Below, piece by piece: positions 5,397-32,913 of a stretch of 64,000 nucleotides of DNA. A program made the translations under genes and the position numbers. Origin of the DNA: Acidobacteriota bacterium (lineage in GTDB: Bacteria; Acidobacteriota; UBA6911; RPQK01; JAJDTT01); assembly GCA_965209055.1 (NCBI GenBank), contig OZ242374.1, positions 4,864,001-4,928,000 of the forward strand, given 5' to 3'. Under the pieces are notes generated by a model. That model was given only the letters and a program-made list of their open reading frames with translations, was not told the origin of the DNA and did not search any database. How positions within the stretch are numbered: the stretch's first letter is position 1; every line of letters starts with the position of its first letter.

Positions 5397-6272
5397 ATGC
5401 CGAAACAACACGAGGCCTTGTTGGGCGCCCACATGTCGATTGCGGGAGGCATTCCCAAGTCCCTCGACCGGGCCATGGACGCCGGCTGCAACGTCCTCCA
5501 GATCTTCGTCAAGAACAACAACCAGTGGCGGGGCCGGCCCTTGCACGACCCCGAAGTGCACGAGTTCCGGCAACGCCGGGCCGAGTCCTCCATCCGCCAG
5601 GTGGTGGCCCACGATTCCTACCTCATCAATCTCGCGTCCCCCAAACCGGATCTCTGGGAACGCTCCATCGCCGCGTTCCTGGACGAGATGAAACGCTGCG
5701 AACGGCTGGGACTGAGTCACCTGGTCACTCACCCGGGAGCCCACGTGGGTGCCGGCGAGGCCTGGGGCATCGACCGGATCGCGGCGGCGCTGAATCGGAT
5801 CCTGGAGCGAACGGCCTCCTACCAGGTCAAGATCGCACTTGAGACCACCGCCGGCCAGGGAACCACCCTGGGCCACCGCTTTCAACATCTCCGGGACATC
5901 ATGGCCGGGTGCGGGTCCCCGGAGCGGATCGTCGTCTGCATGGACACGTGTCACGTCTTCGCCGCCGGCTATGAGATCAGAACCGAGGAGGGTTACGCCG
6001 GCGTCATGGACCAGTTCGACCAGGTCGTGGGCCTGGAAAAACTGGAGGTCCTGCATTTCAACGACAGCAAGCGATCCTTCGGAAGCCGCGTGGACCGGCA
6101 TGAGCACATCGGAGAGGGGGAGATCGGGAAGTCGGCGTTCGGCTGGTTTCTGAACGACCCTCGCCTGGTCCAGGTCCCCAAGTTGCTGGAGACGCCGAAA
6201 GAAAACGAGGGGGAGGCCGACCGGAGAAACCTGAAGGTGCTGCGCTCTCTGTTGGACAAACCTGAGCCATGA
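5397..6272 (+). CDS. nfo: Endonuclease IV (AP endonuclease)
   Basis: GAHMSIAGG, HDSYLINLAS, HPGAH, ETTAGQG, DTCH, HFNDSK, DRHEHIG, LETP. Confidence 0.96.
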   Translation: MPKQHEALLGAHMSIAGGIPKSLDRAMDAGCNVLQIFVKNNNQWRGRPLHDPEVHEFRQRRAESSIRQVVAHDSYLINLASPKPDLWERSIAAFLDEMKRCERLGLSHLVTHPGAHVGAGEAWGIDRIAAALNRILERTASYQVKIALETTAGQGTTLGHRFQHLRDIMAGCGSPERIVVCMDTCHVFAAGYEIRTEEGYAGVMDQFDQVVGLEKLEVLHFNDSKRSFGSRVDRHEHIGEGEIGKSAFGWFLNDPRLVQVPKLLETPKENEGEADRRNLKVLRSLLDKPEP

Positions 6273-6679
6273 ACTCCTACAGCGCCCAGGAACGGGAAGA
6301 GATCCTCCTGGACTACTTCGGCTCCGCGTCCGAAGACGACCCGCTCTGTCCCGACTGCGGTGAGGACCTGGAATTTCGATCGCAGTACCCCTCAGGAGAT
6401 TCTCCGTACCGGCTCCGGGTGGACTGTCCCGACTGCCACGCCGGATTCACTTGGGAACAGGACCGGGACCGGGAGGACTGGACCTCGATTCAGCTCTCCT
6501 ACTGCCGGGAACGGTACCGGCAAGGGAACGCGCCCCGCTGTCCCGTGGATGATTCCTACATCGTCTGCACCGAGTTCACCGACGACACGGTGGAGTTTCG
6601 CTGCCCCTACTGCAACCGCAGCGGCCGGGCACGGACAGGCGTCAACCCACCGGCTCCCGAATCGCAGGATCTCAGGTAG
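6269..6679 (+). CDS. Hypothetical double zinc-ribbon protein
   Basis: ATGA overlap with nfo; CPDC, CPDC, CPVD and CPYC motifs. Confidence 0.7.
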   Translation: MNSYSAQEREEILLDYFGSASEDDPLCPDCGEDLEFRSQYPSGDSPYRLRVDCPDCHAGFTWEQDRDREDWTSIQLSYCRERYRQGNAPRCPVDDSYIVCTEFTDDTVEFRCPYCNRSGRARTGVNPPAPESQDLR

Positions 6680-6776
6680 CCAAGGGTTCTGCGGCTGGAA
6701 ACCCGCCGCTCCCGGGTGCTACCATTTGCCCCGATTTTTCCGCTTATCGAAATCAGAATCGAGGGAGCAGACAGGC

Positions 6777-7394
6777 ATGAAAAACTACGTGGTCGAGTTT
6801 ATTGGGGCATTCTTCCTGGTGCTGGTCATTGGCTTGGCTTCCGGAGACCTGGCGCCGCTGGCCATTGGCGGCGCGCTGATGATCATGGTCTACATGGGGG
6901 GCCACGTTTCGGGGGCCCACTACAACCCGGCCGTCTCCATCGCCTGCCTGGTCCGAGGCGCCCTGGACGGCGCCACCACGGGAATCTACATCGTGAGTCA
7001 GATCCTGGGGGCGCTGGCGGGAGCCTGCACGGCCACTTTCCTGGCGGGACAAGCGACCACGGTGGCCCCCGGCGACGGCGTCAGCGCCACGAACGCGCTC
7101 CTGGCCGAGTTTCTGCTGACCTTTGCCCTGGCCTCGGTGGTCCTCAACGTCGCCACCTCCAAGGACCATCCCGACAACTCGTTCTATGGGCTGGCCATCG
7201 GATTCACCATCTTCGTCGGGGCCGTTTCAGTGGGCCCCATCTCGGGAGGGGCCTTCAACCCGGCGGTGGCGCTGGGCCACAACATCGTCTCCGGCTCACT
7301 GGGAAACATCTGGATCTACCTGCTGGGCCCCGTTGCCGGCGCCGTCGCGGCCTCACTCGTGTTTCGAATCACGAACCCCCACGAGTTCGAGTAG
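6777..7394 (+). CDS. Aquaporin (MIP family)
   Basis: Start MKNYVVEF; SGAHYNPA and SGGAFNPA motifs; six hydrophobic segments. Confidence 0.93.
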   Translation: MKNYVVEFIGAFFLVLVIGLASGDLAPLAIGGALMIMVYMGGHVSGAHYNPAVSIACLVRGALDGATTGIYIVSQILGALAGACTATFLAGQATTVAPGDGVSATNALLAEFLLTFALASVVLNVATSKDHPDNSFYGLAIGFTIFVGAVSVGPISGGAFNPAVALGHNIVSGSLGNIWIYLLGPVAGAVAASLVFRITNPHEFE

Positions 7395-18197: not shown

Positions 18198-20447
18198 GTG
18201 CCTCAACCAAAGCATTACGCACACAGTGCGGAATCGGCTGCGCGAAACCGGTGGCACCCGCTGGCGAAGCATTTGGAAGACACGGCAGCGACCGCAAAAG
18301 AATTTCTCGCACCTGTGGTTGGAGGGGAATTCGGGTTCGCAGCCGGTCTACTACACGACCTTGGCAAGTACGCGCCGCGATTCCAGCGACGGCTCGACGG
18401 CGCAGGCCGTGTTGACCACGCCACGGCTGGCGCCAAAAAGGCGATCGGGCGTTACGGGGAGCTTCGCGGCAAAATGTTGGCATTCTGTATTGCCGGTCAT
18501 CATGCCGGCCTCGCCAACGGTGTGAATGGCCACAAAATCTCCGCCCTGGCAGACCGGCTCCAGAAGCAGGTTCCACGACTCGACCCGGTGTGGAACGAGG
18601 AGATCACATTTCCAGACTTACCAATACCATCCCTTAAGGCGCGTGATCGGGACAGCGCGGCCTTTTCCGCCTCCTTCTTCATCCGCATGGTGTTCTCCGC
18701 TCTTGTGGACGCGGACTTCCTGGACACGGAGGCGTACTACAATGCGCTGGCAGGAACTTCGAAGGCACGCGGGCAGCACCCGGAACTGCGAGAGTTGTCC
18801 GGGCGTCTCGATACATATCTCCAAACGCTTGGGTTGAGCGCAGAGCCCAGTGACGTGAACAGGCTGCGTCAAGAGGTGCTGATTTACGCCCGGAAGCAGG
18901 CAGCAAAGCCACCGGGCCTGTTCACTCTGACCGTTCCCACGGGAGGCGGCAAGACGCTGACCTCCCTTTCCTTCGCCCTGGACCACGCCGCGCGCCACGG
19001 GCTTGCGCGGGTCATCTACGTAATCCCTTACATGAGCATCATCGAACAGACGGCCGCCGTGTTTCGCGAGGCGCTCCGCGACGGCCCGACCGGTGCAGCG
19101 GACTTCGTTGTCGAACATCACAGCACCTTCGAAGATTGGCCCTATAGTCGGGAGGCGAAGGAAAAGCTGTTCCTGGCGATGGAAAACTGGGACGCCCCCA
19201 TCATCGTCACCACGGCCGTACAATTCTTTGAGAGCCTGTTCGCAAACCGCCCCGCACGCTGCCGCAAGTTGCACAACATCGCAAACAGCGTCATTGTCCT
19301 GGACGAAGCACAGACCCTGCCCTTGAAATATCTGCGTCCCTGCGTTGCCGCCCTCGACGAGTTGGCCCGTAACTGGCACGCGAGTGTCGTGCTCTGCACG
19401 GCTACACAGCCAGCCCTGGCAGAAACCTCCGGCTTCCGTGGAGGCCTGGAGAACCTGCGCGAGTTGGCCCCCGAGCCTCAGCTTCTCTACCAAACCCTGA
19501 AGCGCACACAGATTCGTAGTGTGGGACGGCTGGGCGACGCCGTACTCGCAGAACGGTTGCGTGATTCGCCGCAAGTCCTGTGCATCGTTAACACTCGGCG
19601 CCACGCCCGCGAGCTGTACGAAGCGCTCGGGGACATCGAGAACACCTTTCATCTGACCACCCTGATGTGTGCACACCATCGAAGGGAGCGACTCGACAGA
19701 GTACGTGTGCTCCTGAAGGAGGGGGCACCGGTGCGATTAGTCGCTACATCTCTCATCGAGGCCGGGGTCGATGTGGACTTCCCTGTCGTCTGGCGAGCAG
19801 AAGCGGGGTTGGAGTCGATTATCCAAGCCGCCGGACGGTGTAACCGCGAAGGTCGAGTACCCCTCGCTGACGTGTTCGTGTTCGAGCCGGAAGAAGGGGA
19901 AGGGCGCAAGCCCCCACCAGAGATCTGCCAGTTCGCAGCAGCGGCGCGTAGCGTCCTGAGCCGCCACGACGATCCCATGTCCCTGACGTCCATCGACGAC
20001 TACTTCCGGGAACTCTACTGGAGCAAGGGCAAAGATGCACTCGACGCCAAACACATCCTTCGGCAGCTACGTGAGCGTCGAACAACCCTAGACTTCCCCT
20101 TTGAGACTATCGCCCGGGAGTTTCGGTTGATCGAGACAGCCATGGAACCAGTGATTGTCCCCTATCGTGGCGCCAACTGCGACGCCCCAACCGTCGATCG
20201 CCTCCTCGAAAATCTGAAGTGGGTCGAGCGCCCGGGCCACATCGCACGCCTGCTTCAGCCCTATGTCGTAAATGTCCCATCTTCGGCAAGGGTGTCGCTG
20301 CTACGCGCCGGCGCCGCGCGGATCGTCCGGGAAGCCGATTTTGGTATGCAGTTTGTAGTTTTGACCAATATCGACCTTTACCACGAGGAACTTGGCTTGA
20401 TTTGGGATGATCCCACGTTCCTTAAGTTGGAAAGTCTTCTCATGTGA
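18198..20447 (+). CDS. cas3: Cas3 HD nuclease-helicase (type I-C)
   Basis: HDLGK, GHHAGL, LVDADFLDT, VPTGGGKT, DEAQ, QAAGRCNR. Confidence 0.96.
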   Translation: MPQPKHYAHSAESAARNRWHPLAKHLEDTAATAKEFLAPVVGGEFGFAAGLLHDLGKYAPRFQRRLDGAGRVDHATAGAKKAIGRYGELRGKMLAFCIAGHHAGLANGVNGHKISALADRLQKQVPRLDPVWNEEITFPDLPIPSLKARDRDSAAFSASFFIRMVFSALVDADFLDTEAYYNALAGTSKARGQHPELRELSGRLDTYLQTLGLSAEPSDVNRLRQEVLIYARKQAAKPPGLFTLTVPTGGGKTLTSLSFALDHAARHGLARVIYVIPYMSIIEQTAAVFREALRDGPTGAADFVVEHHSTFEDWPYSREAKEKLFLAMENWDAPIIVTTAVQFFESLFANRPARCRKLHNIANSVIVLDEAQTLPLKYLRPCVAALDELARNWHASVVLCTATQPALAETSGFRGGLENLRELAPEPQLLYQTLKRTQIRSVGRLGDAVLAERLRDSPQVLCIVNTRRHARELYEALGDIENTFHLTTLMCAHHRRERLDRVRVLLKEGAPVRLVATSLIEAGVDVDFPVVWRAEAGLESIIQAAGRCNREGRVPLADVFVFEPEEGEGRKPPPEICQFAAAARSVLSRHDDPMSLTSIDDYFRELYWSKGKDALDAKHILRQLRERRTTLDFPFETIAREFRLIETAMEPVIVPYRGANCDAPTVDRLLENLKWVERPGHIARLLQPYVVNVPSSARVSLLRAGAARIVREADFGMQFVVLTNIDLYHEELGLIWDDPTFLKLESLLM

Positions 20448-20489
20448 ATACTCTACAATCTCGCACACATTAGGATGATTTTCTACTAC

Positions 20490-20518
20490 ATGCACGAAGA
20501 ACAAAAATATGCCATACT
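20490..20518 (+). promoter_or_regulatory. Predicted sigma70-type promoter for the mini-array/hicA transcript
   Basis: ATGCAC-17 nt-CATACT with extended -10 TG at 20510-20511, ending 7 nt before the first degenerate repeat; predicted by eye. Confidence 0.45.
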
Positions 20519-20525
20519 TCCGAGT

Positions 20526-20624
20526 GTCGTTGGCCGACGAGAGCCAACGCGGGTTGAAACGTGCAAGTGGTGCGTTTGGTCGCAACGAGTCGTCCCCGGC
20601 TGCTCCGGGGGCGCGGATTATCCG
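20526..20624 (+). ncRNA. Cryptic CRISPR mini-array / crRNA-like RNA (two diverged I-C repeats, one 28-nt spacer)
   Basis: R1 GT-CGTTGGC-cgacgaga-GCCAACG-CGGGTTGAAAC (20526-20560); spacer GTGCAAGTGGTGCGTTTGGTCGCAACGA (20561-20588); R2 GT-CGTCCCCGG-ctgct-CCGGGGGCG-CGGATTATCCG (20589-20624). The array repeat is GT-CGCCCCC-ttacac-GGGGGCG-TGGATTGAAAC. Confidence 0.82.
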
Positions 20625-20672
20625 GTAGGACAACGAGGAAAGTGGATTTAGACCCAGCAGCCGGAATTTGCC

Positions 20673-20879
20673 GTGAAGGTTCGCGATGTCATACGCACGC
20701 TCAAGCAGCATGGGTTCCGATTGGACCGTCAATCCGGAAGCCACAGGCTGTTCGAAGGTGTGGCCGGCGGACGCCGCCGCATAGTGCCGGTACCCGGAAA
20801 GGATGGCGACGACGTTCGTGTAGGTACGTTGTCAGCAATCCGACGGCAATCCGGTCTGCCAAAGGCGCTGTTCCGCTAG
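20673..20879 (+). CDS. hicA: HicA-family mRNA interferase toxin
   Basis: 68 aa; KVRDVIRTLKQHGF..RQSGSHRLF...VPVP...GTLSAIRRQSGL, with the catalytic GSH intact. Confidence 0.9.
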   Translation: MKVRDVIRTLKQHGFRLDRQSGSHRLFEGVAGGRRRIVPVPGKDGDDVRVGTLSAIRRQSGLPKALFR

Positions 20880-21187
20880 GTAATCGCAGGAAGTTTATGG
20901 TGGAAGGAACGACCCTGAAAACAACCGGCCGCGCCTGGAACTCGAGACAACCACGTCATGAACGCGAGTTTTGCGCGAAGGTGCCATGGGGACTTGCGTG
21001 CCAAGAAATGGCTTTGTTCTTGGACCGGCAACTCGGCAACCCTCTCCAAGTAAAGTTCGATACAGACGGCGAGCGATTTCTTGACTTCGTCCAGAGACGG
21101 CGCGAACGTTGCGACATCCAAGTCGATGCAGATCGCTTCCCAATCATCACCGGAGGGGTACGCATAGCATTTGAGGTCAAGGGTCAC
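20876..21187 (-). CDS. hicB: HicB-like antitoxin, convergent on hicA
   Basis: RBS GGGAG plus GTG at 21187 (alternative ATG 21208); WEAICIDLDVATFAPSLDEVKKSL..IELYL is a HicB partial RNase H-fold pattern. Confidence 0.65.
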   Translation of the reverse strand: MTLDLKCYAYPSGDDWEAICIDLDVATFAPSLDEVKKSLAVCIELYLERVAELPVQEQSHFLARKSPWHLRAKLAFMTWLSRVPGAAGCFQGRSFHHKLPAIT

Positions 21188-21294
21188 ATTCGACTCCCTG
21201 GGTTCCATATGGTAAAGGGAGGCATCTACCATCAAAATACCAAAGGATGGCACCATATGCACGGAGTCGCAGCCCACGACGCCGAGAGGACCTT

Positions 21295-21966
21295 ATGCCA
21301 TACGGAGTGAAGTTGCACATTTGGGGTGACTACGCCTGCTTCACGCGACCCGAAATGAAGGTTGAGCGGGTGTCGTACGACGTGATAACACCTTCCGCGG
21401 CGCGCGGGGTCGTCGAAGCGATTCATTGGAAACCGGCCATCCGCTGGATGATCGACCGCATCCACGTCTTAAAACCGATCCGCTTTGAGAACCTCCGCCG
21501 CAACGAGTTGGGTCGAAAGATTCCAGCAGGCAGTGTCCTTCGGGCGATGAAACAAGGCAAGACGGAGGGACTTTACACCCTGATTGAGGACAACCGCCAG
21601 CAGCGGGCCACGACCCTGTTGCGCGACGTGGCCTACGTTATCGAAGCGCACTTCGTCCTCACTGAGGCCGCGACGTCTTGCGACACCGCAGCCAAGCATC
21701 TGTCCATGTTTAACCGACGTGCTTCCAAGGGCCAGTGCTTTCACCGACCCTATCTCGGTACCCGTGAATTCGCCGCCAACTTCGCGCCAGTGGAGGGCAT
21801 GATGCCAAAGTCAACGCTGCCTACCACTCAACAGGATCTCGATTTGGGCTGGATGTTGTACGACATCGACTTTGAAGATGATCGGTCCCCCCGTTTTTTC
21901 CGCGCCAAGCTGCAAAATGGCGTGATGGACGTGCCGCCGCTGGACTCCGAGGAAGTCAGGGCGTGA
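21295..21966 (+). CDS. cas5: Cas5c (Cas5d), type I-C
   Basis: GDYACFTRPEMKVERVSYDVITPSAARG, PYLGTREF, LGWMLYDIDF. Confidence 0.96.
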   Translation: MPYGVKLHIWGDYACFTRPEMKVERVSYDVITPSAARGVVEAIHWKPAIRWMIDRIHVLKPIRFENLRRNELGRKIPAGSVLRAMKQGKTEGLYTLIEDNRQQRATTLLRDVAYVIEAHFVLTEAATSCDTAAKHLSMFNRRASKGQCFHRPYLGTREFAANFAPVEGMMPKSTLPTTQQDLDLGWMLYDIDFEDDRSPRFFRAKLQNGVMDVPPLDSEEVRA

Positions 21967-23747
21967 GTATTCTTCAAGCTCTTGCCAGCCATTACAAACG
22001 CCTTCATGCAAATGGAGAAGCGCCAGATTACGGGTATTCCCGTGAGCCGGTTTCGTTTGCCATCGTGTTGTCGCCGGATGGTGAACCCGTCGATGTCATG
22101 GATTTGCGGGATCCATCAGGCAGGATGCCAAGGCCATCGCTCCGCGGGGTACCCCGACCCGTCACCCGCTCATCGAACATTGCCGCTAATTTCCTGTGGG
22201 ACAAGACCGCCTATACGCTCGGCATGAAGCGTGACCGCGACACGAAACAGCCGACGTCCGCAAGCCGCGAGCACGCTGCTTTCAGGAAGCTACACCAAGA
22301 ACTGCTCCCAGGGACAGGAGACGAGGGACTCAAAGCTCTACGCATCTTCTTGGAGCAATGGCAATCGGAGAATTACTCCAGCCTACGGCACGGAGACGAC
22401 ATGCTGGACGCGAACGTCATCTTTCGACTTGAGAGCGAACAGCGGTTCCTGCATCAGCGGCCAGCGGCACGAGGTATCTGGCAAGCCTATCTGGCAGGAA
22501 CAGACAAATCTCTAGGTCTCTGTCTTGTCTCAGGTGAGCAGGCACCGATCGAACGGCTTCACCCGAAGATCAAAGGCGTCAGAGGAGCGCAATCCTCTGG
22601 CGCGTCCATGGTCTCTTTCAACCTTGACGCCTTCGCATCGTTCGGCAAGAGGCAAGGCTCCAATGCCCCCGTGTCGAAACGAGCTGTCTTCTCCTATGCC
22701 ACCGCCCTGAACACGTTGCTGGCAAGGGACAGCGCGCGACGCATTCAGATCGGCGATGCGACGACGATCTTCTGGGCCGAGGCATCCGGCAACGAAGCGT
22801 GTGCCGCAACGGCGGAAGATTTGTTCTCGTTGCTTGCCGATCCGCCGACGGATGCGGAAGAAGCCATCAAGGTGGGAGACAAGCTCTTGGCGGTTGCGGA
22901 AGGTAAACCGCTGACCGCTGTCGAGCCAGAATTAGACGAGCACACAAGTTTCTACGTGCTTGGACTCGCTCCCAATGCGGCGCGCCTCTCGGTCCGTTTC
23001 TGGCATGTTGACAGCATCGGAGCGATTGCACGACAGATTGGCGAGCACTGGCGTGATCTGCTCATTGATCCGCTTCCCTGGACCACCCCGCCTGGCGCAT
23101 GGCGCCTGCTATACGAAACGGCCGTGCAGCGTAAATCTGAAAACATACCGCCAATCCTCGGTGGCGCGTTAATGCGTTCGATACTAACAGGTGGTCGTTA
23201 TCCCCGATCTCTACTTGCCGCCGTCGTGGCCCGAATGCGCGCCGAGGGAAACATCACGGCCCTCAGGGCAGCGATCTGTAAGGCATGTCTTGCCCGTGAC
23301 CACCGCCTGGGCTTCGAAATGGAGGATGTACCCGTGAGCCTGAACCCGGAAGAAACCAACCAAGCCTATCGCCTTGGAAGACTGTTTGCTTTGTACGAAG
23401 ACGTCCAACGTGCCGCCTTGGGCAATGTCAACTCGACGATCAAGGATCGCTATCTTGGGGCCGCTTCCGCCACCCCAGCATCGGTTTTCCCCTTGCTTGA
23501 GCGCAACTCCGCGAATCACCTTGCGACGCTCCGGAAAGGCAACAAAGGTGGTCTAGCCCATTGGTTTGAGCAACAGATCGACTCCATATTCGACGGTTTG
23601 GACGGGTCCTTTCCACGTAGTCTTCGTCTTGAGGATCAAGGACGTTTCGCGATCGGCTATCACCACCAGAGAGTCAAGAAACGAACCTCTTCAGACAAAG
23701 GAAGAGAAGGTACGGACGCCGAAACCCATGATGAGGAAGGACCATGA
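21963..23747 (+). CDS. cas8c: Cas8c/Csd1 large subunit
   Basis: [61 protein letters not shown]. Confidence 0.95.
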
Positions 23748-24676
23748 ACCCGATCAAACACCGCTATGACTTCGTTTATCTGTTCGATGTCACCAACGGG
23801 AATCCGAACGGCGACCCGGACGCGGGTAACCTGCCACGTCTTGACCCGGAGACCAATCAGGGGCTGGTTTCGGATGTCTGTCTGAAGCGCAAGGTGCGTA
23901 ACTTCGTCGCCTTGACCAAGGAAGACGCACCGGGCCACGAGATCTATGTCACCGAGCGTGCCATTCTTGAACTGCAGCAAAAGCGCGCCTGGGAAGCGAT
24001 TATCCCTGAAGCCACAGCCAAAGATCGGGAAAAGCTCCCCAAGGACCAGCAGAAAGCCCGTGAGATCACACGGTGGATGTGCGCTAACTTCTTTGATGTC
24101 CGTACATTCGGTGCAGTCATGTCAACGAGGGGCGCCAACTGCGGTCAAGTGCGCGGTCCGGTCCAGTTCTCGTTCGCGCGTTCGATCGATCCGATTCTCC
24201 CTTTGGAGGTCTCCATTACACGGATGGCTGCGACCACCGAAGCCGACGCCGAGTCCAAAGGCGACATCCGCACGATGGGCCGTAAGCACATCGTCCCCTA
24301 TGGCTTGTACCGCGCTCACGGTTACGTATCCGCTTGTCTCGCCGGGGGTGCTAAGGGTACCGGCTTCTCCGAGGAAGATCTTGCACTAGTCTGGTTGGCT
24401 CTCGAACAAATGTTCGATCATGATCGATCTGCGGCCCGTGGCGAGATGGCAGCACGGAGGCTGGTCCTGTTCGAGCATGAAACCGCACTCGGCAATGCGG
24501 CCGCCCACCGGTTATTCGAGCGCGTCGCGGTCAAGCGAGCATTCGACGGTAGAGAATACGAGCCCGGCGCGCGCGATGCTCGCCATCTGCCGCCAGCACG
24601 GGCCTACACCGACTATGCGGTCCACATCGACGAGACGGATTTGCCGAACGGGATAAAGATCATAGACCGGATCTGA
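23744..24676 (+). CDS. cas7: Cas7c/Csd2 backbone subunit
   Basis: [47 protein letters not shown]. Confidence 0.96.
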
Positions 24677-24680
24677 ATTG

Positions 24681-25316
24681 ATGGATGCGATCGAACCTGT
24701 CGCACAAGACGAATTGGTACCGATTTCGGCCCTGCAGCACATGCTCTACTGCCCGCGACAATGTGCGCTCATCCATGTCGAGCGGCACTGAGCCGAAAAC
24801 CGCTTTACTGCCGAAGGAAGCATCTTGCACCTGCGCCCCGACGCCGGAAGGGACGAACGCCGCCGCACCATACGAATCGAGCGCAGTGTTCCCCTCCGCT
24901 CTTCTCGGCTTGGTCTTTTCGGCGTGGCCGATGTAGTCGAGATGCATGCCGGCGGACGCATCTATCCGGTGGAGTACAAGCGCGGCCGGCCCAAGACTCA
25001 TCGTGCCGACGAAGTGCAACTCTGTGCGCAGGCAATTTGTCTAGAGGAAATGCTGGATGTCCCTGTTCTGGAGGGAGCCTTGTTCTATGGCCGCAGCCGG
25101 CGCCGTAAGGTGATCGTATTCGATGCTGGGCTGCGCGCGCTCACCGAAGCCGTCGCCGCCGATACGTGGAGCATGCTCGCCGCCGGCCGGACGCCACCAG
25201 CCGAGTTCGAAGCGCGCAAGTGCAACGCCTGCTCGCTCAAGGAAGCATGTCAGCCAGAGAGCCCCCGAGGGGCAGATGTCGTCGATCGCTGGCTGAGGCG
25301 CGCCGTCGAGGGCTGA
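24681..25316 (+). pseudogene. cas4: Cas4 with in-frame TGA at codon 37 (24789-24791)
   Basis: MDAIEP...[31 protein letters not shown]...DVVE..PVEYKRG..QLCAQ..C..CSL...C; TGA sits where W is expected. Confidence 0.9.
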
Positions 25317-25327
25317 TACAAAGTTCC

Positions 25328-26368
25328 ATGCGCCGTCACCTGAACACCCTGTACGTGACGACGGAAAACGCTTGGCTGCACAAGGATGGCGAGAATGCGG
25401 TGGTCAAGGTAGAGGGCTCAGAACGCGGCCGTGTACCCGTACATCTCCTCGGCGGCATCGTCTGTTTTGGTTCGATCGGACTGACGCCGCGACTGATCGG
25501 GCACTGCGCCGAACGCGGCGTTTGCATCTCACTGATGACCCGCTACGGCCGCTTTCTGGCTCGCGTCGAAGGCCCTGTCGCTGGAAACGTGCTTCTGAGG
25601 CGGAGTCAATATCGCGCCAGCGATGATGAGACCACCACCGTAACGCTGGTACGCAACTTGTTGACGGGAAAACTGCTCAATCAACGGACCGTAGTCCGGC
25701 GGGCGCTACGTGATCATGGCAAGAACATGCAGCCGGATGCACGCGCCCGCATGGAAGCCTGCGAGCGCCGACTGAGTGGTGCGGTGCGGCGCACGACTCG
25801 ATCAAAATCGACGAACGTACTGAGAGGAATCGAAGGAGACGCCGCGCGGACCTACTACAGCGTGTTCAATGATCTAGTATTGAGGACAGAATCAGCCTTC
25901 AGGTTCACAAACCGTTCGCGCCGACCGCCACTCGATCCAGTGAACGCTTTACTGTCGTTCGTTTATACCCTTCTGGTTCACGATTGCCGATCGGCCCTGG
26001 AAACTGTGGGGCTCGATCCCGCTGCGGGATTCTTGCATCGAGATCGTCCAGGTCGACCGGGCCTTGCGCTCGACCTCATGGAAGAGCTGCGGTCCGTAAT
26101 CGCTGACCGTCTGGTTCTATCGTTGATCAATCGCAAACAGATCTCGGCCAAAGATTTCACCACGGCAATCAGTGGGGCAGTCTCATTGCGAGACGATCCA
26201 CGGAAGGCGATTCTGGTCGCGTACCAAGCGCGAAAGAAAGATGAACTGACGCACCCGTTTCTCAAGGAAAAAATGATGCTCGGTATCGTCCCGTTCGTCC
26301 AAGCTACTCTGATGGCCCGGCGGTTGCGGGGTGACCTTGACGGCTATCCTCCGTTTCTCTGGAAGTAG
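25328..26368 (+). CDS. cas1: Cas1, type I-C
   Basis: LNTLYVTT, GNVLLRR.QY, RGIEG, RRPPLDPVNALLSF.Y, LALDLMEELR, YPPFLWK. Confidence 0.96.
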   Translation: MRRHLNTLYVTTENAWLHKDGENAVVKVEGSERGRVPVHLLGGIVCFGSIGLTPRLIGHCAERGVCISLMTRYGRFLARVEGPVAGNVLLRRSQYRASDDETTTVTLVRNLLTGKLLNQRTVVRRALRDHGKNMQPDARARMEACERRLSGAVRRTTRSKSTNVLRGIEGDAARTYYSVFNDLVLRTESAFRFTNRSRRPPLDPVNALLSFVYTLLVHDCRSALETVGLDPAAGFLHRDRPGRPGLALDLMEELRSVIADRLVLSLINRKQISAKDFTTAISGAVSLRDDPRKAILVAYQARKKDELTHPFLKEKMMLGIVPFVQATLMARRLRGDLDGYPPFLWK

Positions 26369-26377
26369 GGGGCAACA

Positions 26378-26668
26378 ATGTTGATGCTTATCACGTACGA
26401 TATTGCCACTGGAGAATCTGGAGGACAACGACGCTTACGTCGTGTCGCTCGGCTTTGTCAGGATCTCGGACAGCGGGTTCAGTACTCAGTGTTCGAGTGC
26501 CAAGTCGACCCGGCTCAATGGGCGATACTACGTTCCCGACTCATGAACGAAATCGACGAAAATGCCGATAGTCTTCGCTTTTACAGACTCGGCTCCAATT
26601 GGCGCTCGCGCATCGAACATGTGGGAAACAAGAAGTCCTACGATCCAGATGGACCACTCGTATTCTGA
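26378..26668 (+). CDS. cas2: Cas2
   Basis: LITYDI, RLRRVAR.C..GQRVQYSVFEC, DSLRFYRLG. Confidence 0.96.
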   Translation: MLMLITYDIATGESGGQRRLRRVARLCQDLGQRVQYSVFECQVDPAQWAILRSRLMNEIDENADSLRFYRLGSNWRSRIEHVGNKKSYDPDGPLVF

Positions 26669-30452: not shown

Positions 30453-30611
30453 TACACTTTGCGGAGCTGTCAATGGCCGTTGAAAATTGCACACTCTTGG
30501 CCTTCGAAAATTGCACACTTTTGGCCACTGAAAATTGCACAGGTCGCGGGAGCCCCCGTGGCGGTCGCTACGCTCCCTTCACGGGGGCTCCCGCGGCCGG
30601 ACCTGGTCCCC

Positions 30612-31433
30612 TCATGCCCCCCTCCTCCCCAAGCCCGATTCCTGGGCACTGACGGCTCGGGCGGCGGTCGGATGGATCGCCTTCGAGAGCTCCGCGTGGT
30701 GCCTCAACCGGTAGCTATTGCCTCGGATGTTGACGATGTGGCACCGGTGCAGGATCCGGTCCAGAAGCGCCGCCGCCATCACCTCGTCCCCCAAGATCTG
30801 GCCCCATTCCTCGAAGCCCTTGTTCGAGGTCAACACCGTCGAGGCCCGCTCGTAGCGCCGGTTCACCAGTTGGAAGAACAGCACCGCTCCGCTCTGGCTG
30901 ACCGGTAGGTAGCCGATCTCATCCACCACCAGGAGCGCCGGATGGGTCAGGGTCTTGAGCCGGTGGTTGAGCCGGCCCGCCGCTTTCGCTTCCTCCAACG
31001 AGTCAATCAGGTCCACCAACGTGCCGTAGTAGACCCGCCGACCACGCTCGGCCGCGGCGATCGCCAGGCTGATGGCCAAGTGCGTCTTTCCCACCCCGGG
31101 CGGACCCAGGAAGACGATGTTCTCCCGTCGCTTCACGAAGCCCAGCTCGTGCAGCGAGTCGATCTGCTCCCGCTTGATCGAAGGCTGGAAGCTGAAGTCG
31201 AACTCCGCGAGCGTCTTGATCGTCGGCAGTCGGCTGGAACGCATCGCCGCCTCCAGCCGCCGGCTGTTGCGCAGGGCGATCTGGGCCGCCAGGAGCCGTT
31301 CGATGGCTTCCGAGGCGGTGGTCCCTCCACCATCCACTCCGGAGAGTACGCTATCCAGGGCTTCCAGGGCACCCGGCATCTTCAGGTCCGCCAGCTGGGC
31401 GGCGATGCGCTCACGACGGGAAGGGAGGTTCAC
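30612..31433 (-). CDS. istB: IS21 helper ATPase IstB
   Basis: GPPGVGKTHLA, LLVVDEIGY, LTSNKGF, ALLDRILH, GNSYRL; GTGA overlap with the istA stop. Confidence 0.95.
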   Translation of the reverse strand: MNLPSRRERIAAQLADLKMPGALEALDSVLSGVDGGGTTASEAIERLLAAQIALRNSRRLEAAMRSSRLPTIKTLAEFDFSFQPSIKREQIDSLHELGFVKRRENIVFLGPPGVGKTHLAISLAIAAAERGRRVYYGTLVDLIDSLEEAKAAGRLNHRLKTLTHPALLVVDEIGYLPVSQSGAVLFFQLVNRRYERASTVLTSNKGFEEWGQILGDEVMAAALLDRILHRCHIVNIRGNSYRLRHHAELSKAIHPTAARAVSAQESGLGRRGA

Positions 31434-32470
31434 GACACCCCTCCCGTGAGGCGGGCATACTCGGTCAGGGGACGGCGCTCGACGTCCACCATACGCGGCC
31501 AGTTCGTCGCCGGTACCGGAGTTGCCGACGGCTTCGGCAGTGGAACCACAGTGGAGTGGTAAGGCCAAGTGGCCAAAGGAGTTAGAGTCTCACGCTCCCG
31601 CTCGAACCGGTCCACGGGCCGTTCCTTGAGCGTCCCGTGGTTGCGGACATTGGCCTCTTCGTCCCGCCACTTCCGAGCCCGGGCGTTGAGATCGGTGTCC
31701 GAGACGAAGTCCCGGCCATAGAAGAAACTCTCCCGAATGTAGCGGACCGGCCGCTCCACCTTCCCCTTCGTCTGAGCTCGATAGGGTCGGCAGGCCCGCA
31801 CCCGAAAACCCCAGTGGCGGCTGAAGCGAACGAACTCCCGGTTCTCGATCAACCGTCCGCCCTCTTCGCGCCCATCCCGGACGATGACCGCCTTCATCTG
31901 GTCGAACAGAAGTTCCCCAGGGACACCCCCGAAGTAAGTGAACGAGGCCTCCAGGCCCCGCATCACCACCGGCATCGTCTTGCGCTCGTAGTACCGAAAC
32001 CACAACAACCGGGAGTAGCCCAGCACCACGATCAGGGCGTACCGCTTGCCCCACGGCAACCGGAAATCCGCAAAGTCCACTTGCCCTTGGTGCCCCGGAG
32101 GGGTCTCGAACCGTTGGACCGGTTCCTGGACCACCCGCGGCCGCACTTGGCGAACGTAGCGCTTCACCTGTCCGTAGGCCCCGGGATAACCCGCCTTCCG
32201 GACTTCCCGGAACAGCCGCGTCGCCGTCAACTTCGGATACTCGGCCAGACGAGCGTCGATGATCGCCTTGTACGGATCCAGCTTCGACCGCACAGACCGC
32301 CTCGGTCCGTACTGGGCCGGTTCCTCCTTCTCTCCCCGGTTCAACTGGCCCGTCTTGATCCAGTAGTAGACCGTCCGCCGGCTGACTCCCAACTGCCGCG
32401 CGATGGCGGCCTTGATCATTCCTTGCTCCAGATAGTGTCGCAGCAGCACCCTCTTGTCGCTCCCAAACAT
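31430..32470 (-). CDS. istA: IS21 transposase IstA
   Basis: N-terminal HTH, SKLDPY, RFETPPG.QGQVDF, FDQMK, CRPYRAQTKGKVER. Confidence 0.95.
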   Translation of the reverse strand: MFGSDKRVLLRHYLEQGMIKAAIARQLGVSRRTVYYWIKTGQLNRGEKEEPAQYGPRRSVRSKLDPYKAIIDARLAEYPKLTATRLFREVRKAGYPGAYGQVKRYVRQVRPRVVQEPVQRFETPPGHQGQVDFADFRLPWGKRYALIVVLGYSRLLWFRYYERKTMPVVMRGLEASFTYFGGVPGELLFDQMKAVIVRDGREEGGRLIENREFVRFSRHWGFRVRACRPYRAQTKGKVERPVRYIRESFFYGRDFVSDTDLNARARKWRDEEANVRNHGTLKERPVDRFERERETLTPLATWPYHSTVVPLPKPSATPVPATNWPRMVDVERRPLTEYARLTGGVS

Positions 32471-32678
32471 AACGTCTCCTCCTCTCGGTAGAGACGCTAG
32501 GTAACAAAATCTCGCCCCCGCGGCGAACTTCTCGAGAACCTCCTTGTGGCTCCCCCCTAAAAGCCTCTTCAGGAACCAAAAGTGTGCAATTTTCCATGGC
32601 CACATCTGCGCAACTTTCGACGGCCACATCTGTGCAATTTTCCATGGCCGCCAACAACTGGCCGCAAAAAAGACGGAC

Positions 32679-32913
32679 GTCGCCCCCTTACACGGGGGCG
32701 TGGATTGAAACAGCCGGTCCAAGGGATTCAAGGTGCGCGCCACAGGTCGCCCCCTTACACGGGGGCGTGGATTGAAACCTATGTAGCGCCTGGGGGTACT
32801 GACGCATAAGAAGTCGCCCCCTTACACGGGGGCGTGGATTGAAACTATGTGAATGAGTACAACGTCCGGCGGTTGTACGGGTCGCCCCCTTACACGGGGG
32901 CGTGGATTGAAAC
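32679..32913 (+). CRISPR. Type I-C array, distal part: 4 repeats
   Basis: Identical repeats at 32679, 32746, 32813 and 32881. Confidence 0.97.

Follow-up and report, generated by a model that had tools for sequence, protein, structure and literature searches.

The 64,000-nucleotide stretch analysed here (positions 4,864,001 to 4,928,000 of contig OZ242374.1 of an Acidobacteriota bacterium; hereafter the window) carries a type I-C CRISPR locus in which a mini-array of two degenerate repeats and one spacer-like segment (20526-20624) lies in the gap from the cas3 stop (20447) to the cas5c start (21295), followed by a gene for a HicA toxin and a convergent gene for a HicB-like protein. Judged from its sequence, the element is a genuine CRISPR RNA (crRNA)-like mini-array, on the correct strand, with an I-C hairpin and a predicted 11-nt handle. 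We suggest that it is a Cas-regulating I-C mini-array, of the class that includes CreR/CreA, solitary repeat units (SRU) and crlRNAs, and that its self-repressed unit captured a HicA cassette; we give this reading about an even chance of being right. The features on which the argument turns are as follows.

20468 to 20498, minus strand: candidate target A, with the protospacer adjacent motif (PAM) TTC at 20498-20496 and the protospacer from 20495
20510 to 20518, plus strand: predicted extended -10 element TGCCATACT, read by eye
20526 to 20560, plus strand: PsiR1, a degenerate I-C repeat with the hairpin CGTTGGC/GCCAACG and the 11-nt handle CGGGTTGAAAC at 20550-20560
20561 to 20588, plus strand: spacer-like segment of 28 nt
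20589 to 20624, plus strand: PsiR2, a degenerate repeat with a 9-bp hairpin
20673 to 20879, plus strand: hicA, 68 aa, GTG start, intact (Pfam HicA_toxin PF07927, 1.5e-16)
20876 to 21187, minus strand: hicB-like gene, 103 aa, start GTG 21187, convergent with hicA
21234 to 21242, minus strand: predicted extended -10 element of the hicB-like promoter, TGGTATTTT, read by eye from a four-genome alignment
21235 to 21265, minus strand: candidate target B, with the PAM TCC at 21265-21263 and matches to spacer positions 1-5 and 8-13

A sequence-only reading of this DNA had described two diverged I-C repeats in the cas3-cas5 gap, and the stems, tails and positions it gave for them all hold. PsiR1 is laid out as GT, CGTTGGC, a loop, GCCAACG and the tail CGGGTTGAAAC, and PsiR2 as GT, CGTCCCCGG, CTGCT, CCGGGGGCG and the tail CGGATTATCCG. 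Both agree with the array repeat of the locus (GTCGCCCCCTTACACGGGGGCGTGGATTGAAAC, 33 nt, 58 exact copies) in the 5' GTCG, in where the hairpin stands and in the tail motifs, and the PsiR2 tail has diverged to the point that it matches this repeat at 5 of its 11 positions. Genome-wide scans covered both strands of the single 6.08-Mb contig (12.15 million positions). The tail motif CG[CT]GG[AG]TTGAAAC was found in 59 copies, 58 in the two parts of the array and one in PsiR1; the motif GGGGGCG[CT]GGATT was likewise found 59 times, 58 times in the arrays and once in PsiR2. Because these motifs are unique outside the arrays, PsiR1 and PsiR2 are, by their motifs, true derivatives of the locus's own I-C repeat and not chance look-alikes. 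The hairpin folding energies were -11.7 kcal/mol for PsiR1 and -19.7 kcal/mol for PsiR2; compared with shuffled sequences PsiR2 stands out (z -2.75), whereas PsiR1 does not (z -1.36).

The spacer-like segment was also confirmed to be shorter than the array spacers, which measure 33-36 nt (31 of 34 nt, 19 of 35 nt, four of 33 nt and two of 36 nt). It is thus 6 nt below the commonest array spacer of 34 nt. Spacers of 28 nt are also present in the mini-arrays of three other I-C loci (L032, L052 and L057). No full self-target of the spacer was found in the genome, the best match being 20/28. That match belongs to a repeated element with four copies (genome positions 1181084, 2015528, 3010897 and 5285897; PAM CCG), which agrees with spacer positions 1-8 and 10-12 among its 20 and is probably due to chance. 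An Rfam search gave no meaningful match.

The claim of an intact hicA 48 nt downstream of PsiR2 on the same strand proved correct (GTG at 20673). All four aligned HicA copies have residues G22, S23 and H24, and Gly22 and His24 are described as required for the toxicity of HicA from Burkholderia pseudomallei (PMC3969222). The stop codons of hicA and of the hicB-like gene share one CTAG (20876-20879), an arrangement kept in the window and in three further genomes (G006, G001 and G008). The sequence-only reading had the second gene as hicB-like and convergent; it is convergent and probably encodes the antitoxin, but it starts at GTG 21187 and not further upstream, and it matches no HicB family model. 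No NCBIfam or PDB sequence match was found for the protein, and none in Pfam at E<=10 for 15 members; its likeness to HicB lies at the level of the fold and of a language model only. Its 11 database homologues are all 102-103 aa long, no DNA-binding domain was detected in it, and there was no match in the plasmid collection. Among 76 genomes of the order we found it in 8, and among 401 genomes sampled from the phylum in 5.

The AlphaFold2 (AF2) model of the hicB-like protein had a predicted local distance difference test score (pLDDT) of 70. The top two Foldseek matches were 2yzt (probability 0.97, E 0.35) and 3k6q (E 0.47), both with weak E-values; 3k6q is annotated as the antitoxin part of a putative toxin/antitoxin system. 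The nearest cluster in the language-model Atlas (0.93) is automatically named HicB family antitoxin. When the complex of HicA and the hicB-like protein was predicted, the score was 0.48 and that of the best control 0.01, which is weak support for a complex: of 80 solved complexes 58 pass at this mark, as do 2 of 110 mismatched pairs, and scores of at most 0.60 were obtained for just 7 of the 80 solved complexes and for both passing mismatched pairs. At least 97% of the contacts agreed between the prediction runs, and the pLDDT of the partner was at least 63. We take the hicB-like protein to be probably the antidote of HicA, of the HicB type.

We also looked at where the cassette comes from. 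The same convergent pair stands outside any cas context in two genomes (G001 and G008), non-cas copies with a decayed hicA occur in two others (G005 and G007), and the window's own genome has a second, fragmentary copy of the cassette. Such a distribution marks the pair as a mobile unit. The left end of the homology with the stand-alone cassettes (G001 and G008) is at about 20628, which is 4 nt past PsiR2, and to the left of this point the similarity to them was not above that of shuffles; the 48-nt stretch between PsiR2 and hicA is homologous to the stand-alone cassettes' 5' untranslated region. At its right end the cassette is homologous to G005 and G007 through the promoter region of the hicB-like gene as far as about 21290, just before the ribosome-binding site of cas5c. 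In comparison with the stand-alone copies, hicA in the window has lost its native promoter, and it lacks the space for one of its own. In other I-C loci, the cas5c start lies about 15-35 nt past PsiR2. The simplest history would be that the cassette inserted between a pre-existing mini-array and cas5c and left the hicA promoter behind.

An alignment by MAFFT had given PsiR2 some likeness to the stand-alone cassettes. Its origin as a leftover of the hicA promoter was rejected, since 152-362 of 500 shuffles did equally well in local alignment. We also noticed that in G005 (locus L011) and G007 (locus L012) the place of cas5c is taken by DNA for a protein whose sequence resembles a canonical HicB/UPF0150 N-terminus (…HIERDGEWHIAYCPEIPGA…) and which is encoded divergently from the hicB-like gene, just past the promoter region of the latter.

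The sole candidate promoter upstream of hicA, itself predicted by eye, has the extended -10 element at 20510-20518 and would start transcription at about PsiR1. Site A covers this promoter, overlying its -35 position. It is a TTC-flanked seed match of 9/10, situated 21 nt past the cas3 stop and 28 nt upstream of PsiR1, and it pairs with spacer positions 1-5, 7, 8, 10 and 11, with a possible rG:dT wobble at position 9. Genome-wide, nine TTC-flanked sites have at least 9/10 of the seed, site A among them, and none has 10. Within the 847-nt gap there are two seed matches of at least 9/10, compared with about 0.07 expected (478 genome-wide), a figure to be read as a post hoc statistic. The position of the TTC-flanked match at site A is improbable by chance, again by a post hoc statistic.

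From these elements we propose the following sequence of events. Transcription would start near PsiR1, from the promoter with the extended -10 element, and Cas5c would cut the PsiR1 hairpin at its 3' base, leaving the 11-nt handle with its 5' end at 20550. The 28-nt guide would then be loaded into a Cascade one Cas7 subunit shorter than usual and would pair, by its seed only, with TTC-flanked site A over the -35 position of its own promoter; with pairing limited to the seed, Cascade would repress without cutting by Cas3. Since hicA lost its native promoter, it would be part of this self-repressed unit. The genes cas5c-cas8c-cas7 may perhaps belong to the same unit by read-through, which is possible because a generic scan of 20300-21400 found no terminator-like site. 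The HicB-like protein, expressed from its own promoter on the opposite strand, would neutralise basal HicA. Should all of this apply, hicA transcription would rise once Cascade is lost or inhibited. The claim of the sequence-only reading that the RNA represses hicA through Cascade is partly supported, by the I-C gap, the TTC-flanked seed match over a predicted promoter and the hicA gene immediately downstream; the pairing is limited to the seed, and neither candidate target is kept in the orthologous locus.

This locus (L010 of genome G006) was the sole orthologue that turned up when 61 genomes (G000 being one of them) were searched by DNA and 15 genomes of the family by Cas5c; two of these 15 have this cas5c. 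DNA pattern scans for further orthologues found none in metagenome contigs and G006 alone in genome contigs. PsiR1 is identical in the two lineages at 29 of 35 positions (83%); of the six changes, one is in the handle and the other five are in the upper stem or the loop. In the spacer, positions 1-5 and 8-11 are kept, and those that vary are 6 and 12, which do not pair, and 7, which belongs to the pairing seed. The 99-nt mini-array unit shows no insertion or deletion, while the flank has one of 10 nt. The counterpart of the extended -10 element reads TGCAATACT in G006, and the block 20510-20525 is 81% identical, compared with 47% for the neighbouring spacer DNA, so that no other part of this DNA is better preserved. 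Between the lineages, the synonymous divergence (dS) is 0.6-0.9, and the ratio of nonsynonymous to synonymous divergence (dN/dS) is 0.09-0.17 for all cas genes, 0.12 for hicA and 0.19 for the hicB-like gene, the last two values indicating purifying selection.

This conservation bears on the possibility that the element is a decaying relic, that is, a leftover mini-array or array fragment which guides Cascade nowhere and whose seed matches are due to chance. A stem and handle of PsiR1 that kept 29 of 35 positions at a dS of 0.6-0.9, beside spacer DNA that kept 47%, speak against decay, as do a unit free of indels next to a flank that has one and a TTC-flanked seed match at a position improbable by chance. 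A relic would agree with the lack of a conserved target and the degenerate PsiR2 in G006, with two other mini-arrays (L022 and L026) for which no target was found inside the locus, with the chance-level count of site B, and with the broken cas4 and the array split by an insertion sequence in the window. On balance we consider a relic quite unlikely. The sequence-only reading had looked to the stems of homologous loci as a check; in G006 the PsiR1 hairpin is kept, whereas that of PsiR2 is lost.

Several observations weigh against our reading of a self-repressed unit with captured hicA. Only two such mini-array loci were found, the window and G006. Site A matches at 9 of the 15 effective positions (first 18 nt) and at none past position 11, while comparator mini-arrays pair at 12-14 of 15, and the figures computed for sites A and B are post hoc statistics. 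A generic sigma-70 scan of 20300-21400 found no promoters, those proposed here having been read by eye only. In G006 PsiR2 is 61% identical and, as said, without its hairpin; the homologue of site A has the PAM TCC and 6/10 of the seed, no TTC-flanked seed match was found in the gap, and site B is absent. HicA has a probable protein antidote of its own, so the RNA would not be the sole brake on the toxin. Finally, cas5c of G006 has a TAA at codon 10, where the window has Trp, and its cas3 is split, while its hicA is intact. Because this stop coexists with an intact hicA, loss of Cascade may be tolerated; G006 is a metagenome-assembled genome (MAG), and its lesions could be errors. The dN/dS of 0.09-0.17 for the cas genes argues that these lesions are either recent or MAG errors.

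The regions of the G006 locus concerned are 6235-6906 and 7744-9992 of L010, and cas3 is represented there by two overlapping open reading frames (ORFs). Apparently intact in the same locus are hicA, the hicB-like gene, cas8c, cas7, cas1, cas2 and an array of 21 repeats.

A second candidate target, site B, is situated 30-60 nt upstream of cas5c, where it overlaps with the -35 region in the promoter of the hicB-like gene. The extended -10 element of this promoter has the form TGnTAnTTT, which is kept in G005, G006 and G007, the non-cas copies included. Site B matches at 11 of 15 effective positions; 1386 sites of the genome, with any PAM, attain this score. It is not kept in G005, G006 or G007. 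As a target in a cas5c promoter it was rejected as the main target, in view of its PAM TCC and its score of 11/15 shared with 1386 sites; moreover, the DNA of site B is homologous to the region upstream of the hicB-like gene in the non-cas copies of G005 and G007, where it differs, and the site is absent in G006. A site at this place would repress the promoter of the antitoxin, which does not fit with a simple addiction logic and is one more point against our reading. Upstream of cas3 only weak matches were found. In G006 there is, about 590 nt upstream of cas3, a TTC followed by eight Watson-Crick pairs and one wobble, which has no counterpart in the window.

One could instead take both sites as functional, with two seed-only Cascade sites wiring the toxin-antitoxin (TA) pair as an abortive-infection switch: site A would throttle the promoter of the guide and hicA, and site B would act on the hicB-like promoter. 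If an anti-CRISPR disabled Cascade, the guide/hicA promoter would be derepressed and HicA would rise, and transcription running into the hicB-like gene would silence the antidote at the same time, because the two genes converge, their stops overlap and no terminator separates them. We regard such a switch as unlikely.

For comparison, 80 metagenomic I-C loci were retrieved with a Cas5c query. In 31 of the 57 loci in which cas3 was found upstream, the cas3-cas5c gap holds at least 0.9 kb of other DNA. A hairpin followed by a unit of about 11 nt with GAAA[CT], at most 300 nt upstream of cas5c, was detected in 20 of 72 loci and in 4 of 72 control regions at cas8c, with a simple detector of our own and with many close kin among the 72. 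TTC-flanked targets scoring 13-14 of 15 were found in L032, L050, L052, L057 and L075, and one of 12/15 in L070; the mismatches of the comparator targets fall at positions 6 and 12. In L050, L052, L057 and L075 the target lies directly past the cas3 stop and ahead of the cargo, the same place as site A. In L022, L026 and L070, mini-arrays without cargo abut cas5c. The search for other I-C loci with a mini-array and hicA, proposed in the sequence-only reading, gave G006 only. A third I-C locus (L020, 1-552) has hicA and the convergent hicB-like gene directly upstream of cas5c, and its contig ends inside hicA; its Cas5c is 71% and its HicB-like protein 45% identical to those of the window. Since the same cassette precedes cas5c there too, a lasting association between cassette and cas5c can be argued.

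Two of these loci deserve a brief description. In L052 (1955-3989), and in its close relative L057, the gap is occupied by a SLATT gene and two genes for ThsB-like TIR proteins; the 28-nt-spacer mini-array abuts cas5c, and a TTC-flanked 14/15 target stands right after cas3. This cargo matches the published CRISIS system 'Shaseng'. In L050 (609-1552), one gene of about 230 aa, Fic/Doc-like by eye only, lies between cas3 and the mini-array; the target is flanked by TTC and scores 14/15, with mismatches only at 6 and 12 within the first 16 positions.

These loci also raise the possibility that the mini-array regulates only Cas and that the self-contained TA cassette is a passenger at an insertion hot spot, so that loss of Cascade would not be toxic. 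Other DNA fills the gap in 31 of 57 loci, cargo-less mini-arrays abut cas5c in three, and the CreR preprint reports I-C creA-like elements without a toxin gene (10.1101/2023.03.10.532045). The same cassette occurs outside cas loci in G001 and G008 and with a decayed hicA in G005 and G007, and G006 combines an intact hicA with a broken cas5c. A passenger is harder to reconcile with the same cassette directly upstream of cas5c in L020 and with a hicA without native promoter, placed 48 nt past PsiR2 on the same strand. A promoterless hicA in this position implies that control of the mini-array promoter must act on hicA too. We therefore hold a pure passenger to be possible but somewhat doubtful; if it were right, the locus would be one more cargo insertion between cas3 and cas5c.

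The sequence-only reading went further and proposed release of the toxin upon loss of Cascade. In its strict form, with the RNA as the effective antitoxin and HicA killing or arresting the cell once Cascade is lost or inhibited by an anti-CRISPR protein, this logic has been demonstrated, according to the published accounts, in CreTA, in CrePA and in the CRISIS systems of I-C, and it agrees with the way in which site A, promoter and hicA are placed. Against it stand a conserved protein antidote under purifying selection, the cas5c stop of G006 next to an intact hicA, and a second seed match on the antitoxin promoter. Strict addiction or abortive infection is in our opinion improbable here. G006, with its cas5c stop and intact hicA, offers a comparison of whether Cascade or the protein partner holds the toxin.

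The window encodes a complete type I-C set, identified with Pfam and NCBIfam: cas3, cas5c, cas8c, cas7, cas4, cas1 and cas2, together with the array. These features are listed below.

18198 to 20447, plus strand: cas3, HD nuclease and helicase (Pfam DEAD, Cas3-like_C_2, Cas3_HD)
21295 to 21966, plus strand: cas5c, type I-C pre-crRNA endonuclease (Pfam Cas_Cas5d, 2.6e-46; TIGR01876, 1.2e-57)
21963 to 23747, plus strand: cas8c (Pfam Cas_Csd1, 5.8e-184)
23744 to 24676, plus strand: cas7 (Pfam Cas_Cas7, 3.5e-99)
24681 to 25316: cas4, with an in-frame TGA at 24789-24791
25166 to 26368: ORF containing cas1
26378 to 26668: cas2
from 26851: CRISPR array, with a hairpin repeat ending ATTGAAAC

The genes cas8c and cas7 (21963-24676) are the remainder of Cascade. 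The TGA of cas4 is codon 37, where the 214-aa Cas4 of G006 has Trp; apart from it the frame is 81% identical to that of G006. Spacer acquisition in the window genome may be impaired because of this stop. The array is interrupted by a 2226-nt insertion with IS21-type genes on the minus strand (window 30460-32750), namely IstB at 30612-31568 and a transposase with an rve integrase and a helix-turn-helix domain at 31430-32743. Beyond the insertion, four to five more repeats follow at 32699-32913.

The arrangement described here is related to several known systems. The closest are the I-C CRISIS, Nezha and Gabija loci of Shu et al. (10.1101/2024.12.27.630466), whose text describes crlRNAs encoded between cas3 and cas5c that repress the promoters of cargo genes, as shown by small RNA sequencing and reporters. 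There a solitary repeat unit precedes cas5c, Cas5c cuts 3' of the hairpin to leave an 11-nt handle, the targets have a TTC or TTA PAM right before the cargo, and repression is 4.8- to 60-fold; when supervision is lost, the cargo causes autoimmunity or abortive infection. 'Shaseng' consists there of two TIR proteins and SLATT. Our locus shares with these systems the subtype, the non-cas cargo between cas3 and cas5c, a repeat unit having a hairpin and a predicted 11-nt handle, and a candidate partial match with a TTC PAM to a predicted promoter right after cas3, with positions 6 and 12 free. The order differs, being target, cargo, repeat unit and cas5c in CRISIS and target, repeat unit, cargo and cas5c here. 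The CRISIS cargoes are phage-defence systems, whereas here the cargo is a type II TA pair, the pairing is seed-only, and the locus is known from sequence alone.

Shmakov et al. (2023; PMC10120712) reported TA cargo downstream of mini-arrays and a mini-array in 7% of 1206 I-C loci. As in our case, the TA genes follow the mini-array and precede the effector genes, with a predicted target in the cargo promoter, and addiction or abortive infection is suggested as the result. Their arrangement was described for I-D clades, and the enrichment of TA genes concerned I-B, I-E, I-F1 and I-D; I-C is not discussed in the text.

In CreTA and in CrePA (10.1101/2024.01.05.574328; PMC12737573), as their accounts have it, a degenerate mini-CRISPR RNA with limited pairing likewise directs Cascade to the promoter of a toxin inside the cas locus. 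The toxin CreT is an RNA (I-B, I-F) and CreP a KilA-N protein under CreA in the I-F system of Acinetobacter, in contrast to the HicA RNase-family protein here. CreA is the sole antitoxin in both, while our locus has a probable protein antitoxin as well; with the hicB-like partner, and with the cas5c stop of G006 beside an intact hicA, RNA and Cascade do not qualify as sole antitoxin here. CreR (10.1101/2023.03.10.532045) is similar in that a degenerate mini-CRISPR represses the promoter of the effector cas genes, and its Figure S7 shows the I-C creA-like elements already mentioned. CreR loci are often free of toxin genes, whereas here the RNA gene is separated from the effector genes by a toxin gene.

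When compared with canonical HicAB, the 68-aa HicA has the same Pfam domain as that of B. pseudomallei (PMC3969222), with conserved G22 and H24. Canonical hicAB is a co-directional operon, while here the genes are convergent with overlapping stops and the partner has no HicB Pfam match. We found no description of HicA under mini-array control in the main texts of this literature, and literature searches yielded no such paper; supplementary locus tables may list such cases. The remark of the sequence-only reading that no I-C example with HicAB was described is therefore outdated as to the kind, CRISPR-supervised cargo being already known, and appears true, in the main texts, for an I-C locus with HicA as cargo.

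The cargo known so far to be supervised comprises RNA toxins, a KilA-N protein and multi-gene defence systems. If Cascade controls hicA, a type II TA pair, of the commonest class of bacterial toxins, would join it, and supervision would reach the Acidobacteriota, far from the models in Neisseria, Acinetobacter and haloarchaea. The locus would also show how such a circuit can originate, by a mobile TA cassette that dropped between a Cas-regulating mini-array and cas5c and lost the promoter of its toxin.

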